A stretch of DNA of 43,870 nt from Escherichia phage AnnaReinhart_Bas75. Positions 4,908 through 11,286 of this stretch are shown here, piece after piece. Below the pieces are notes generated by a model. That model searched no databases. It worked only from the letters and a program-made list of their open reading frames with translations, and was not told the origin of the DNA. The translations under genes and the position numbers were made by a program. The stretch is taken from the sequence record PQ850596.1; one strand, 5' to 3'. The stretch's first letter is position 1; every line of letters starts with the position of its first letter.

Positions 4908-5111
4908 TCAACGGAATCTTGTGTTTAAATCCTGCTCGTGGACGACCCTCAGAACAGTGTCATAATCCCCGTATCTTCCAGGTTCAAATATATCTAATGC
5001 CTTGTAAGCAGACATTGCGTCAGGGAAAACCTGCAGAACCTTTTTAACCCGGCACAAGTCACCGTCGAACTCTTCATCGAACTCTTGAACTACTTCGCAA
5101 ATTGCATACAT
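4908..5111 (-). CDS. hypothetical small acidic protein (67 aa), single-gene minus-strand insert
   Basis: ORF with AGGAGG RBS 8 nt before ATG, own early-type promoter (5139..5167) and shared terminator; opposite orientation to flanking structural genes. Confidence 0.6.
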   Translation of the reverse strand: MYAICEVVQEFDEEFDGDLCRVKKVLQVFPDAMSAYKALDIFEPGRYGDYDTVLRVVHEQDLNTRFR

Positions 5112-5138
5112 TTTTCACCTCCTGTTTAAGTTAACTGA

Positions 5139-5167
5139 ATAGTACCCTATTATATTGGGGTGTGCAA
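5139..5167 (-). promoter_or_regulatory. sigma70-like promoter TTGCAC-N17-TACTAT containing palindrome AATAG-N4-CTATT
   Basis: Read on minus strand: TTGCAC accccaatataataggg TACTAT, then AGGAGG RBS and ATG of 4908..5111. Near-identical to sites at 14262, 37025 and 38441. Confidence 0.6.
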
Positions 5168-5442
5168 ACTATTTATTTACGTATTCCAGTTATTCCACCG
5201 AATTGTAAATGTTGGAATAAACTATTCGAATAGTTGACTTTTCACTAAAAATATGATAAGCTCCACCTGAGCTTGTGAAATATGAACAAGCGACCGCGGC
5301 GCGGGCAGGTAACGGAGCGGGACGTAAGTCCTGAGTGTAGTTACGCTGACGCGTTCGGAAGGGCCATACTCTATTGCTTGTGTAAAAAGTAACAGGTTTA
5401 CTGAGATTACGCCGTTTCTATGTTTAAATGATAAGGACTAGC

Positions 5443-5468: not shown

Positions 5469-5486
5469 TATCGAGAAAGGAGAAAC

Positions 5487-5873
5487 ATGAATCTTAAAGC
5501 AACTGTCGTAGCAGGAGCATGTTTCATCATCCTGGTTTACGCACACGGCATCTACCAGTATCGCAGCGGATGGAACGAAGGCCGGGCTAATCTCGTTTCG
5601 CAGCAACAGCAGAAAGCACAGGCTGAGTTAGCGAAGAAAACACAACGGCAGCAGCAGGATGAATCGAAGGCCGCCGCCGCTGACAACGAAGGCAAGACGA
5701 AATCAGAGGTGATTACCCGTGAAGTCGTTAAGTACATTAAAACGCCTGGTCGCAGTGTGTGCGCTTTTGACCCTGAGCGCGTGCAGCTCAAGTCCCGCGC
5801 CGTCGCAAACGCCAACTCCATCCCCGGATACGACGATGATGCAGCCGCCGTGCAAACTGGCACCGCCAAGTAG
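5487..5873 (+). CDS. Rz: i-spanin (Rz-like inner membrane spanin)
   Basis: 128 aa; N-terminal transmembrane segment (VVAGACFIILVYAHGIY), then Gln/Ala/Lys-rich predicted coiled coil; contains an embedded out-of-frame lipoprotein ORF, the hallmark Rz/Rz1 arrangement. Confidence 0.6.
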   Translation: MNLKATVVAGACFIILVYAHGIYQYRSGWNEGRANLVSQQQQKAQAELAKKTQRQQQDESKAAAADNEGKTKSEVITREVVKYIKTPGRSVCAFDPERVQLKSRAVANANSIPGYDDDAAAVQTGTAK

Positions 5874-5982
5874 CGACGCCGACGAGGATTTGGCTATCGA
5901 CGTTCAGAACGCTGAATGTGTACGGCAACTGAGGCTGAAAGTGTTTATGTTGCAGGATTACGTGAGGAATATTCTGGAATAG
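5719..5982 (+). CDS. Rz1: o-spanin (Rz1-like outer membrane lipoprotein), overlapping the 3' end of Rz in another frame
   Basis: GTG start with GAGGTGA RBS; signal peptide ending in lipobox LSAC; Pro-rich mature region (SPAPSQTPTPSP...PPC), typical of Rz1. Confidence 0.55.
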   Translation: MKSLSTLKRLVAVCALLTLSACSSSPAPSQTPTPSPDTTMMQPPCKLAPPSSDADEDLAIDVQNAECVRQLRLKVFMLQDYVRNILE

Positions 5983-6064
5983 TTGCCTTGCATGTTGGAA
6001 TAATTTATTCTTGACATGTAAATCCGGGTGGCCCGGGTTCCAACGTCCAGGGGACATACTGACT

Positions 6065-7860: not shown

Positions 7861-7877
7861 TTACTAAGAGGTAAATT

Positions 7878-8177
7878 ATGGCTAAGACCGGAAAAGGCTT
7901 GCCTCGCAGCCTTCAGAATGTCGACTTCGGCGACTTTGACATCCCAGTAACGCCGGCTACTACCGGCGTAGTTGGTGGGGTTAAAAAGTCAGCTACTGTA
8001 GCTGCCCCCGCGGCCATTACCGCTGCCGCCGGGTCGCAGTCCGCTGCGGACCCGACTAAGCCCGAGTTCGATGCCCTTGTAGCCGAGTACAACAAACTTC
8101 GAACTGATGTAACCGCGCTGCGCACTACCGTAGCAAATCTGTTGACTGCGCTTAAAAATGCAGGAACTGTAAGCTAA
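7878..8177 (+). CDS. hypothetical structural protein (99 aa, Ala-rich)
   Basis: AAGAGG RBS before ATG; located between capsid and Ig-like genes. Confidence 0.55.
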   Translation: MAKTGKGLPRSLQNVDFGDFDIPVTPATTGVVGGVKKSATVAAPAAITAAAGSQSAADPTKPEFDALVAEYNKLRTDVTALRTTVANLLTALKNAGTVS

Positions 8178-8576: not shown

Positions 8577-8756
8577 ATGGCAGATAATTATGTAATCCGC
8601 GAAAAGTACACCCACGTTGATGTTGTTGACGGTCAGGTTATGCCCGTTCGCGGTGTTGTAGAAGCGGATGAACTGGTAGCGGTTCAACCGGACAACGAAG
8701 AAGCGCACAACAACGGCGGTGGCACTAAGCGTCGCCGCCGTAAGTCAGAGGAATAA
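8577..8756 (+). CDS. hypothetical protein (59 aa; below the ORF-track size cutoff)
   Basis: ATG preceded by AAGGAAAGG; clean ORF ending just before the next gene; basic C-terminus GGGTKRRRRK. Confidence 0.45.
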   Translation: MADNYVIREKYTHVDVVDGQVMPVRGVVEADELVAVQPDNEEAHNNGGGTKRRRRKSEE

Positions 8757-8759
8757 TTT

Positions 8760-9272
8760 ATGCCGCTAATCGTGGAAACTGGGGCAATCGTCCCGAATGC
8801 CGACAGTTACATTAGTCTGGCTGACGCCCGCGCGTTAGCGGCTAATTATGGCCTTGAGCTACCGGAAGACGATACCGCCGCGGAGGTGGCCTTGCGTAAC
8901 GGCGCCACTTATGTCGGGCTTGCGGAACCGCAGATGTGCGGTCGCCGGGTATCCGCCGAACAGTCTCTGGCGTACCCACGTACGGGAACAACACTGAACG
9001 GCTTCACTGTAGCGGATAATGATATTCCGTCGCAGTTAATCCGGGCGCAGGTAATCGCCGCTGTTACATATGGCGCAGGAACTGATGTTCGGGCTAACTC
9101 TGATGGGCGTTCCGTGCAGACTGAGCGCGTAGAAGGCGCGGTGACCGTGACATACTTCAACAACGGCAACAGTGGCGCTACGACCGCGATTACCGCTGCT
9201 GACGACGCTTTACGCCCGTTATTGTGTGGCGGTCTTAACAATGGTTTCTCGTTTAACGTGTACCGGGGTTAA
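8760..9272 (+). CDS. putative head-tail connector/adaptor protein
   Basis: 170 aa, in the head-completion position; N-terminus (IVPNADSYISLADARALA) resembles gp6-like adaptor proteins. Assignment is tentative. Confidence 0.45.
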   Translation: MPLIVETGAIVPNADSYISLADARALAANYGLELPEDDTAAEVALRNGATYVGLAEPQMCGRRVSAEQSLAYPRTGTTLNGFTVADNDIPSQLIRAQVIAAVTYGAGTDVRANSDGRSVQTERVEGAVTVTYFNNGNSGATTAITAADDALRPLLCGGLNNGFSFNVYRG

Positions 9273-9274
9273 AA

Positions 9275-9889
9275 ATGGCGAAGACTAAATCAGAGATATT
9301 CACGCTAATCGGTTCCGAGCTACCGGACAACACGACCGGACTTATTACGCCTGCGAAGTTGCGCGGGGTATTAACCCAGATGGCTGACTCACCTATTTAC
9401 GCCACTCCGGGTGTTAAAGAGGTTGAAGTTCTCCGCGCTGCGTCGACAGTAGCGCAAGCGCCTACCGCAGTAGATACGGCGTTGCAGTTAACTTTCGGCG
9501 CTGCGCAGGGTAGTGCATCCGACCCGGTAATGATTAATGCCGCTGGCCTGGTTACATTTAACACCGCTGGCAACTACGCCGTTCGCATCAAGTTACAGGC
9601 GGGGCGCACAGGGGCCAGCGGCACGCCCATCCTGTTATCGCGCATTCTTCTTAACGGAGCTCAATACGGCTCACCAGCTGCCACGAAACTGGTAAGCGCC
9701 GATGTAACAATCCCGATTGAATCCCGTGTAGTGATTAACCCAACCGCCGGGCAAACATTCGCCGTTCAGATTATGCGAGATAGCGCCGGGACTAACTTCG
9801 GAGGCGTATACCCGCAGGTGGCTACTGTAACTGCATGGGGCACGGCACCGTTAGCGTTACTGGTTATTTCGAGACTGGAGGCTGCGTAA
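9275..9889 (+). CDS. hypothetical structural protein (204 aa)
   Basis: Tightly packed in structural operon with translational coupling to neighbours. Confidence 0.5.
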   Translation: MAKTKSEIFTLIGSELPDNTTGLITPAKLRGVLTQMADSPIYATPGVKEVEVLRAASTVAQAPTAVDTALQLTFGAAQGSASDPVMINAAGLVTFNTAGNYAVRIKLQAGRTGASGTPILLSRILLNGAQYGSPAATKLVSADVTIPIESRVVINPTAGQTFAVQIMRDSAGTNFGGVYPQVATVTAWGTAPLALLVISRLEAA

Positions 9890-10020
9890 TGCGTAAAATA
9901 ATTAATATGTGGATTAACTCTGATTTTTTGTGGAAGTACGAATTTTTGGTATCAGTGTTTGCGCTGGTATCAACAACAGCTCTAATTATATTTTTAGCGG
10001 TTTGCGGGGAGTCAACATGA
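9889..10020 (+). CDS. small membrane protein (43 aa) encoded by an AT-rich insert
   Basis: ATG overlapping upstream stop (TAATG); single hydrophobic helix LVSVFALVSTTALIIFLAV; local GC clearly lower than flanks. Confidence 0.45.
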   Translation: MRKIINMWINSDFLWKYEFLVSVFALVSTTALIIFLAVCGEST

Positions 10021-10376
10021 GCACCGCTTTCAGCAAACGTATGCAGGGCGTGGGTACACGCCTGCTAACCAAATTCGGCAGCACAGTATCTCTGGTTCGC
10101 GCTGGCTCGAAAGTGTGGGATGAAGTTCTCGGTGAATACGTCTGGTCTGCGGATGAAGTGTTGCCGTTGAAGGCTGTTCCGGTTCCGGTAAACGCGGGAC
10201 TGGTAAACGGTACGACGATTCAGGCTGGCGACATGATTGTTAAAGCGGATTGCAGCGTCGTTCCGAAGATGGAAGACAAAGTGCAATTCGGTGGCGAGCA
10301 GTGGTCTGTCGTAGCCATTGAGAAGAAGATGGTTAACGATGATGTCGTGGCATACTTTATTCAGGTGAGAAAATGA
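10017..10376 (+). CDS. hypothetical head-tail joining protein (119 aa)
   Basis: ATG 10017 overlaps upstream stop (ATGA); position between connector and tail-completion genes. Confidence 0.5.
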   Translation: MSTAFSKRMQGVGTRLLTKFGSTVSLVRAGSKVWDEVLGEYVWSADEVLPLKAVPVPVNAGLVNGTTIQAGDMIVKADCSVVPKMEDKVQFGGEQWSVVAIEKKMVNDDVVAYFIQVRK

Positions 10377-10873
10377 GTTTCGCGCTTGATGTCTCTAAGT
10401 TCGTGGAAAAGGCGAAGAAGAACCCTGAGAAGGTGATGCGTCAGGTGTCTATCAAGCTGTTTTCCGCTATTATAAAGGCGAGTCCGGTGGATACTGGCCG
10501 CTTTCGTATGAACTGGATGGCCTCTGGCGGTACTCCTGCTTCCGGTACGAGTCGCGGTACCGACCCTAGCGGGGCGAACGCGATAAGCGCTATGGTTTCT
10601 ACGGTGTCAGGTTTACCCGACTGGAGCGAGTTTACCCTGACAAATAACCTGCCGTATGCGGAAGTTATAGAGTTCGGGGGTTACGCTACTGGCTTCCACG
10701 GCCCTAAGCGCCCTTCTAACTTAGGCTCTAAATTTGTTGGCCCATTGAGGCCGAAAGCGCCCAGCAGAACAACCACAGACGGATATTCCCTTCAGGCTCC
10801 GCAAGGTGTTGTCCGGGTTAACGTTCAGCGATTCAATAAACTGCTCGAAGAAGAAGCGAGGAAGTATAAATAA
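10373..10873 (+). CDS. tail completion protein, HK97 gp10-like
   Basis: 166 aa; motif SPVDTGRFRMNW matches the conserved PVDTG-R signature I recall for the HK97 gp10 family. Confidence 0.55.
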   Translation: MSFALDVSKFVEKAKKNPEKVMRQVSIKLFSAIIKASPVDTGRFRMNWMASGGTPASGTSRGTDPSGANAISAMVSTVSGLPDWSEFTLTNNLPYAEVIEFGGYATGFHGPKRPSNLGSKFVGPLRPKAPSRTTTDGYSLQAPQGVVRVNVQRFNKLLEEEARKYK

Positions 10874-11286
10874 TGGGCTACTTTGAGGACTTAACAAAAG
10901 CGTTCGATGTTCCGCTGGTAGCCTTCGGAACCGCCAACGGCATCAAGGTTGCGCTTGAAAACATCGACGCGCCGACGTCAACCGATACGCCGTATCTGGC
11001 GAGTTACATGCTACTGGCAGATACCGAGCAGGCGGATTTGTTCTTCACTGAGCAACGCTCTGGTATTTATCAGGTAGACATTAACTACGCATCGGTGAAA
11101 GGTAGCGCGCCAATCAATAAAATGGCAGACTTACTTAACACGGCGTTTAAAGCAGGTAAGTCATTTTCGCGTAACGACATCTGCGCCGAGGTTCAATCGG
11201 TTAGCCTGGGGCCGCTGATTGTAGAAAACGGATGGGCCAAACGACCATTGTCAATTAACTTTATTGCATTCACCAAGAGGCTGTGA
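10873..11286 (+). CDS. putative tail terminator / tail completion protein (137 aa)
   Basis: Position immediately upstream of the major tail protein gene; start overlaps previous stop. Confidence 0.45.
   Translation: MGYFEDLTKAFDVPLVAFGTANGIKVALENIDAPTSTDTPYLASYMLLADTEQADLFFTEQRSGIYQVDINYASVKGSAPINKMADLLNTAFKAGKSFSRNDICAEVQSVSLGPLIVENGWAKRPLSINFIAFTKRL

Follow-up and report, generated by a model that had tools for sequence, protein, structure and literature searches.

Escherichia phage AnnaReinhart_Bas75 (Bas75; sequence record PQ850596.1) carries a 132-bp segment in its late virion operon that encodes a hydrophobic peptide of 43 amino acids (aa). We analyzed the whole 43,870-nucleotide stretch of this record, hereafter called the window, and coordinates refer to it unless another record is named. 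Both neighbors of the segment, subsequently designated the cassette, are virion connector-region genes. The following features lie at the locus:

9275..9889, + strand: upstream gene for a 204-aa connector-region protein (phrog_3614, unknown function; annotated as 'neck protein' in some records)
9877..9881, + strand: GGAGG Shine-Dalgarno sequence, 7 nt 5' of the ATG at 9889, read from the sequence
9889..10020, + strand: 43-aa open reading frame (ORF), i.e. the 132-bp cassette, with a guanine-plus-cytosine (GC) fraction of 0.348, TAATG at its left edge and ATGA at its right edge
9910..9945, + strand: aromatic juxtamembrane motif W-I-N-S-D-F-L-W-K-Y-E-F, codons 8-19
9943..10008, + strand: predicted transmembrane helix, approximately F19 to G40, based on hydrophobicity, AlphaFold2 and a homologue
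10006..10011, + strand: GGGGAG Shine-Dalgarno-like element within the last codons of the cassette, 5 nt ahead of the ATG at 10017
10017..10376, + strand: downstream gene for a 119-aa head-closure protein (Hc1)/Neck1 (phrog_161/17193), translationally coupled to the cassette

The cassette has the sequence ATGCGTAAA...TCAACATGA (excerpt of the other end, ATGCGTAAA…GAGTCAACATGA) and is translated to MRKIINMWINSDFLWKYEFLVSVFALVSTTALIIFLAVCGEST, exactly as a sequence-only reading of the window had written it. The TAA of the upstream ORF 9275-9889 occupies positions 9887-9889 and its final A is common to the ATG of the cassette at 9889, while the TGA of the cassette at 10018-10020 overlaps the ATG at 10017 of ORF 10017-10376. 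Thereby, the stop/start overlaps that had been reported for both ends are confirmed. The last 13 bases of the upstream gene provide the Shine-Dalgarno sequence of the cassette together with the overlapping stop, and the same GGAGG element serves the head-closure gene in relatives in which this junction is empty. The order of genes in the late operon is Ad1 adaptor, 204-aa phrog_3614 protein, 43-aa peptide, Hc1 head closure, tail completion, tail terminator and tail tube.

The GC fraction of the cassette (0.348) contrasts with 0.507 for the whole genome and 0.51-0.57 for the neighboring genes. It ranks within the lowest 0.6% of all 132-bp windows, approximately 2.9 standard deviations under the mean, which agrees with the clearly lower GC noticed in the first place. 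Low GC as a mere by-product of codons for hydrophobic amino acids was rejected, because GC at third codon positions is low as well (0.364 versus 0.55-0.65 in the neighboring genes). Upon shuffling of the internal 126 bases the frame stays open in only 3.3% of cases, and four of the five other frames of the 132 bp contain three to five stops each. One antisense frame is free of stops across the whole 132 bp of 9889-10020; a listing of ORFs of at least 30 aa contains no antisense ORF covering these positions. A crude consensus scan of positions 9000-11000, which weak promoters could escape, returned 0 promoter-like and 0 terminator-like sites. Rfam gave no match for the cassette region at E-values up to 1, and the fold of the cassette RNA is not unusually stable (z-score -0.63). 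With neither promoter, terminator, Rfam family nor significant fold in the region, its interpretation as a DNA or RNA element was rejected. A local 12-bp hairpin was also dismissed as an element, as it is conserved neither in phage KMB35 nor in the distant homologue described below.

When 1.84 billion representative proteins were searched exhaustively with HMMER, one true homologue of the 43-aa peptide was found, a protein of 46 aa (MSIWSKVKDYWENSDFLWKYEFIGGWFILCLTAALIVFLAVAENSQ; E-value 6e-6) with 52% identity overall. Its gene is present on two short assembly contigs, where it is located between genes for a 207-aa and a 119-aa protein with ATGA overlaps on both sides. The proteins flanking the homologue are only 70-72% identical to their counterparts in the window, and these flanks (…LEPVPSP*) resemble Enterobacter phage phiEap-2, whose own junction is empty. 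The sequence NSDFLWKYEF is invariant in the homologue across four synonymous codon changes, and the C-terminal half of the helix, T29-x-A-L-I-[IV]-F-L-A-V38, is also kept. For the pair of peptides, non-synonymous divergence (pN) is 0.35 versus a synonymous divergence (pS) of 0.74. Synonymous divergence between the two lineages amounts to 0.69 in the flanks and is thus similar to that of the cassette, suggesting that both copies are about as old as the split of the lineages, within the limits that saturation sets to this estimate.

Closer to the window, a search at the DNA level, which is unbiased by protein identity, found the cassette in seven GenBank phages. Six of these encode identical proteins and one carries the substitution L26M. 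The exact 43-aa protein is encoded on 71 public contigs, and in 10 out of 10 inspected contigs (Kagunavirus contigs of 29-46 kb) it is located at this junction. In relatives carrying the cassette the ORF is already annotated as 'hypothetical protein'. The sequence-only reading had allowed for a fortuitous small ORF and had pointed to disruption of the frame in close relatives, with retention of the AT-rich spacer, as the sign thereof. No such case was found, because all seven GenBank copies are intact. A fortuitous ORF is further contradicted by the homologue with 52% identity, which a distant lineage encodes at this very junction, and by constraint at the level of amino acids. Judged by these sequence comparisons, the 132 bp constitute a true accessory gene that codes for a protein.

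Further searches for relatives or a source of the gene remained negative. A word-indexed protein search with the 43-aa query returned no candidates. In a clustering at 90% identity, the peptide is filed with the unrelated 204-aa upstream protein in a cluster of 2,244 members; this looks like a clustering artefact and may explain the empty word-indexed search. Screening of 50,697 phage records by tblastn recovered only the seven carriers in addition to chance matches at E-values of at least 5. No match to the cassette was obtained by blastn in 5,426 complete E. coli genomes and therefore no prophage or chromosomal source is indicated among these. The back-translated NSDFLWKYEF motif had 0 matches in IMG/VR, JGI metagenomes and GTDB genomes. 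The relaxed pattern DFLWKYEF had 0 matches in IMG/VR and 20 in metagenomes, all 20 of which are located in stop-filled frames and were discarded as chance matches. Sequence searches of Pfam, PHROG, NCBIfam and PDB yielded no match for the 43-aa peptide at E-values up to 1-10. The available passages of the reports on the Kagunavirus K1B4 transcriptome (PMC12645636) and on the BASEL collection (PMC11990801) make no mention of the 43-aa ORF. Within the scope of these searches, the peptide family is new and very small, consisting of two clusters that are known only in Guernseyvirinae and at this junction only.

The product was proposed to be a hydrophobic membrane peptide with a single helix, and prediction agrees. 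For the best 19-mer, F19-A37, the Wimley-White octanol scale gives -10.8 kcal/mol and the Kyte-Doolittle mean is 2.5, and AlphaFold2 models a single uninterrupted helix comprising residues 2-41 (pLDDT 91). In both homologues, all Lys/Arg residues (three) are N-terminal of the hydrophobic stretch and the C-terminal tail of 3-5 residues is acidic. Because of this one-sided distribution of Lys/Arg, an N-in, C-out topology is predicted according to the positive-inside rule. The prediction for the 43-aa product is thus a helix that crosses the inner membrane once, with its N-terminus inside, and consists of a cytoplasmic aromatic juxtamembrane segment (W8-F19), the transmembrane stretch (approximately F19-G40) and a periplasmic tail of approximately three residues. 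Two parts are conserved, namely the aromatic juxtamembrane segment, which is predicted to lie on the cytoplasmic side, and the helix's outer half. By prediction, the peptide therefore shows the characteristics of a bitopic microprotein, i.e. a bilayer-spanning hydrophobic helix and Lys/Arg residues on one side only. A lipoprotein was considered in view of the lipobox-like C-terminal 'LAVC' and rejected: the homologue has Ala in place of the Cys, and no more than five residues would remain after cleavage.

To compare the junction between the neck-region and head-closure genes across relatives, junction states were determined from aligned spans and by sequence reading in the 40 closest E. coli records. 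The region of the window is 95-97% identical to BASEL-collection Kagunavirus phages of E. coli (Guernseyvirinae), and the window shares 97-98% identity with Bas76 along most of its length. The junction states are:

132-bp cassette of the window: 7 of 40 records
114-bp cassette encoding a 37-aa basic peptide, MEVKKRLVIKRSYGYKKRLSDASKELANILSTKRGLE: 3 of 40 records (Bas70, Bas71 and Bas74)
99-bp cassette encoding a 32-aa hydrophobic peptide, MNKFTCGVVFGFLTAVVLHSYGVLLTLQEVLK: 13 of 40 records
empty junction (direct TGATGA or TAATGA): 17 of 40 records

The natural empty junction corresponding to the window reads …GCTGCCTGATGAGC…; empty junctions are present in Bas72, XY2, 590B and K1ind1, among others. 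In the BASEL series, Bas73, Bas75 and Bas76 encode the 43-aa peptide, Bas70, Bas71 and Bas74 the 37-aa peptide, and Bas72 nothing. Among 18 loci in IMG/VR, 11 are empty, six contain the 99-bp cassette and one contains a cassette of 342 bp. The latter locus corresponds to Raoultella phage RP180 and the product is a CxxC…CxxC protein (phrog_11861), whose relatives are scattered among unrelated Klebsiella, Salmonella, Pseudomonas and Erwinia phages. All sampled Salmonella Jerseyvirus/Cornellvirus phages as well as Serratia phage Eta, Hafnia phage TS33 and Enterobacter phage phiEap-2 have an empty junction, which is probably the ancestral state. The other cassettes are likewise AT-richer than their surroundings (GC 0.39-0.46) and share placement and architecture with the 43-aa gene. 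However, their sequences are unrelated, and the 32-aa and phrog_11861 families also occur elsewhere, whereas the 43-aa family occurs only here. Homologues of the 32-aa peptide with 55-61% identity are encoded elsewhere in the genomes of Salmonella relatives. In Salmonella phage vB_SenTO17, a 32-aa ORF with 61% identity (positions 1201-1299 of that record) is located at the end of the nin/early operon and is ATGA-coupled to a NinH-like gene, suggesting one micro-gene family that uses different genomic sites in different genera. As far as these alignments tell, the junction is an accessory-gene insertion hot spot of Kagunavirus phages, and the comparison to related genomes, which the first description had called for, shows the presence of the 43-aa gene to be patchy.

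Several records deviate at this site. In the reference record of phage K1G the intact 99-bp cassette ORF was left unannotated, one example of the tiny phage ORFs that are routinely labeled 'hypothetical' or not called at all. In the same record (positions 126-835), a 1-bp insertion cuts the 204-aa upstream gene to 148 aa. Truncation and missing annotation are probably sequencing or annotation artefacts. The label 'DUF3042' assigned to the 99-bp cassette in one record is unsupported (E-value 0.25; 11.7 bits versus a cut-off of 25). In one assembly contig (2387-3001) the upstream gene comprises 187 aa and ends 50 bp before an intact cassette ORF, reflecting either a premature stop or an assembly error.

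Two alternative explanations for the gene bear directly on its placement. First, the cassette could be a passenger, i.e. a neutral or selfish insert lacking a peptide function, whose frame is open only to maintain coupling to the downstream connector and tail genes. Every cassette at the junction runs from an ATG overlapping the upstream stop to exactly an ATGA end, whatever it encodes, and the three short ones (132, 114 and 99 bp) terminate in a purine-rich Shine-Dalgarno-like run, as read by eye. This indicates strong selection on coupling, and phages with an empty site are fully viable. However, coupling requires nothing more than an open frame, yet a 10-residue motif and half of the helix are conserved between peptides of 52% identity, the codons of the motif have diverged synonymously, pN is well below pS, and the cassette has spread into many backgrounds. 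A pure passenger is therefore highly improbable in our view. Second, the peptide could be a virion or assembly component, such as a small neck-associated protein or a chaperone for the adjacent connector proteins. The position between two connector-region genes and stoichiometric co-translation would fit. But the peptide is strongly hydrophobic, most relatives with near-identical connector proteins lack it, and unrelated peptides or nothing at all can take its place, which leaves this explanation with hardly any likelihood.

Next to the patchy distribution, the surroundings of the cassette carry traces of its movement. Two segments are relevant:

9727..10097, no strand: core of a mosaic patch versus Bas70, comprising mismatches in the flanks and the differing cassette
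9858..10078, no strand: tract nearly unchanged among carriers, the minimal recombination patch, with a nucleotide diversity of 0-0.03 versus 0.07-0.2 in the flanks

Comparison with Bas70, which carries the 114-bp cassette, over positions 8700-11200 detected isolated mismatches at 9365 and 9378 and none in 10098-11200. The remaining mismatches are located on either side of the cassette, in 9626-9883 (dense from 9727) and in 10034-10097, i.e. only 9365, 9378 and 9626 fall outside the core patch 9727-9883/10034-10097. This suggests a replacement patch of roughly 370-470 bp with outer limits 9626-10097. Outside this patch and apart from the two scattered mismatches, Bas70 and the window match almost completely over the 2.5 kb compared.

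In the carriers M01, KMB35 and UTEC10 the upstream gene is only 83-84% identical to that of the window, whereas the cassette is 98.5-100% identical. Altogether, the cassette is 97-100% identical among 15 carriers, in which it forms only four haplotypes, while the flanks differ by 10-20%. Nucleotide diversity among these carriers is 0-0.015 over 9861-10036, 0.03 at 10037-10080 and 0.07-0.2 in the flanks. The end points of the shared tract around the cassette vary between pairs of carriers. The phage genome encodes an annealing protein and an exonuclease. The simplest reading is that one allele spread recently into diverged genomes via short homologous-recombination patches during co-infection, because the cassette is near-invariant within flanks that differ by 10-20%. 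Horizontal acquisition, which the sequence-only reading had derived from composition and membrane character, is thus supported by a junction that is mostly empty or occupied by unrelated cassettes, by the patch detected versus Bas70 and by the invariant cassette in the 15 carriers.

Taken together, we favor the following scenario. The cassette has the structure of an exact ATG...SD...ATGA unit (SD, Shine-Dalgarno sequence). Its translation should therefore be coupled to that of the late virion operon, with ribosomes being handed to the next gene via the Shine-Dalgarno sequence in its own 3' end. It would move between co-infecting relatives by short recombination patches in the conserved flanks. 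Late in infection, the peptide most likely binds a larger inner-membrane protein in a helix-to-helix manner. It would be dispensable for virion assembly and act as a late conflict or fitness factor; as specific role we prefer that it stops the DNA of related superinfecting phages from entering at the inner membrane, as for gp15 of phage HK97 and Imm of phage T4. We assign this scenario as a whole, which we consider the best explanation, a probability of about 0.55. That the cassette is a real, mobile and non-essential gene for a membrane microprotein is very likely. The gp15/Imm-like superinfection-exclusion role, which is an analogy, is possible rather than probable and is put forward tentatively.

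A helix-to-helix mode of action has precedents. AcrZ, MgrB, MgtS, SgrT and KdpF comprise 30-50 residues with one transmembrane helix and bind a larger membrane protein. The 43-aa peptide is comparable in size, in its single helix and in the generic mechanism proposed here. However, those proteins are chromosomally encoded and stress-regulated, and they have no homology to the peptide, for which HMMER found one phage homologue only. A further parallel are the single-gene lysis peptides of ssRNA phages, for instance the 37-aa LysM/SglM, which targets MurJ; these peptides provide the sole lysis function of their phages. They are similar in size, also possess one transmembrane helix and demonstrate that an essential envelope protein can be inhibited by a peptide of this kind. 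In contrast, the genome considered here possesses holins, endolysin and spanins, and most relatives lack the peptide.

Indeed, the genome annotation places two holins, an endolysin and Rz/Rz1 at other sites, and according to the BASEL S1 Data phages with an empty junction are viable and plate normally. Therefore, the gene is needed neither for lysis nor for assembly. A subtler contribution to lysis is nevertheless conceivable: the peptide could act as a modulator of lysis timing that binds the phage holins late, like an antiholin or holin helper, and shifts the time of lysis. This would fit with the coupling of the cassette to late genes, with the single transmembrane helix whose membrane half is conserved, with lysis genes that are already scattered (Rz/Rz1 in the head module, two holins at ~40 kb) and with the other small hydrophobic peptide encoded at the site. 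On the other hand, holin, antiholin and spanin profiles from Pfam, PHROGs and NCBIfam do not match the peptide, a full set of lysis genes exists besides it and most relatives do without it. Moreover, the basic soluble peptide and the CxxC protein encoded by other cassettes are not membrane proteins, arguing that the site is not dedicated to lysis. Hence, we rate a role in lysis timing as rather unlikely.

The exclusion role is favored because the patchiness of the gene, the turnover of alternatives and the recent spread resemble those of a conflict gene, and because, among documented cases of small membrane proteins encoded in a virion operon, HK97 gp15 comes closest (PMC3594210). The gene 15 moron of HK97 encodes a small inner-membrane exclusion protein within the virion operon (PMC3594210; reviewing Juhala et al. 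2000 and Cumby et al. 2012). Like this moron, the cassette is located between virion genes that are adjacent in relatives, deviates in GC, was probably acquired horizontally and encodes a small, predicted inner-membrane protein that is not needed for virion assembly. Unlike the moron, it has no promoter and terminator of its own and is seamlessly coupled at the level of translation instead. Further, its phage is virulent, precluding expression from a prophage, and the peptide has no homology to gp15: the YebO-type Pfam profile, which represents the HK97 gp15/YebO family, does not match it, and an exclusion function of the peptide is putative.

Morons are defined as extra DNA between genes that are adjacent in relatives, with deviant GC, an own promoter and terminator, and expression in the prophage to the benefit of the host (PMC3594210). 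The cassette displays the first two properties and lacks an own promoter and terminator. Kagunaviruses are virulent siphoviruses according to the BASEL report (PMC11990801), and prophage expression is probably inapplicable to them. The cassette is thus a moron-type accessory insertion rather than a classical moron. Its mobility is fairly ordinary phage mosaicism, as mosaic accessory genes at hot spots and small phage membrane proteins are both well known.

A second analogy is provided by T4. Imm is an exclusion protein that acts at the inner membrane and is encoded by an early gene. It is similarly a small membrane protein of a virulent phage, and its block of DNA entry at the cytoplasmic membrane is the mode of action proposed here for the peptide. 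However, Imm is early and larger and has no sequence similarity to the peptide, making this analogy purely functional.

Several points weigh against the favored scenario. Known exclusion proteins of virulent phages are products of early genes and expression from a late operon is atypical of them. Translation, membrane insertion and phenotype of the peptide are predictions, and nothing ties it to superinfection exclusion. The carriers Bas73, Bas75 and Bas76 behave like non-carriers on RexAB, PifA, Fun/Z and Tin in the BASEL phenotyping. The evidence for constraint comes from a single pair, as the family consists of two sequence clusters, and synonymous sites are saturated in this pair. Finally, 10 of the 15 carriers were retrieved by exact protein identity, which lowers the non-synonymous diversity of the cassette, but not the synonymous diversity or that of the flanks.

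The same distribution could also characterize a counter-defence factor, in which case the peptide would neutralize a membrane-associated immunity effector of the host or a prophage that is triggered late. Patchiness, fast turnover of cassettes and recent spread over diverged backgrounds would be typical of conflict genes in this case, too. But carriers have no advantage on any defence system tested with the BASEL phages, and among the seven Kagunaviruses they are, if anything, those most sensitive to Old. No match to known defence or anti-defence families was obtained; the PADLOC models assigned 0 families to all five cassette products. Such a function is consequently very unlikely. With respect to Old, the carriers Bas73, Bas75 and Bas76 show the lowest three plating efficiencies (1e-14, 0.032 and 0.006, respectively; BASEL S1 Data), compared to 0.76, 0.18, 0.79 and 0.036 for the other four Kagunaviruses, of which Bas74 is approximately equal to Bas75. 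The chance of this ranking is 1 in 35, confounded by relatedness and differing test hosts, and the ranking is probably unrelated to the peptide.

The near-isogenic BASEL phages on E. coli K-12 represent a natural experiment, in which the function of a microprotein is testable by simple swaps. If exclusion or counter-defence turned out to be true, the moron concept would gain a promoter-less, translationally coupled variant in virulent phages; otherwise, the cassette would be a routine example of phage mosaicism. In a more far-reaching version, the junction would be a dedicated exchange site for promoter-less coupled micro-cassettes that bring their own downstream ribosome-binding site, and the 43-aa peptide would found a family of late membrane microproteins deciding phage-phage competition or host defence. 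We regard this version as quite unlikely.

Further features were noticed elsewhere in the window. Rz/Rz1-like spanin genes are located in the head-gene module at ~5480-5990, as deduced from collinearity with Bas76 (5487-5982), and thus ~35 kb away from the holin-holin-endolysin cluster at ~40.3-41.3 kb, i.e. the lysis cassette is split. Positions 5054-5301 represent the deepest GC trough of the structural half, with values down to 0.29 in 132-bp windows. The matching region in Bas76 contains a small reverse-strand gene and a 36-aa ORF, and the trough may be another accessory or regulatory insertion. The segment 7872-8258, 3' of the major capsid gene, could not be aligned to Bas76 (7872-7939). 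Here, the window and several contigs encode a 99-aa protein and a 116-aa Ig-like protein, while others encode a single 113-aa Ig-like decoration protein; with this segment, the head module has a second polymorphic site. The tail-completion gene at 10373-10873 encodes a 166-aa form in the window and a 131-aa form in Bas74, UTEC10 and several contigs. In K1G and fFiEco03, Hc1 and the tail-completion gene are annotated as a joined 'putative frameshift product', whereas in the window they are connected by a simple ATGA overlap.

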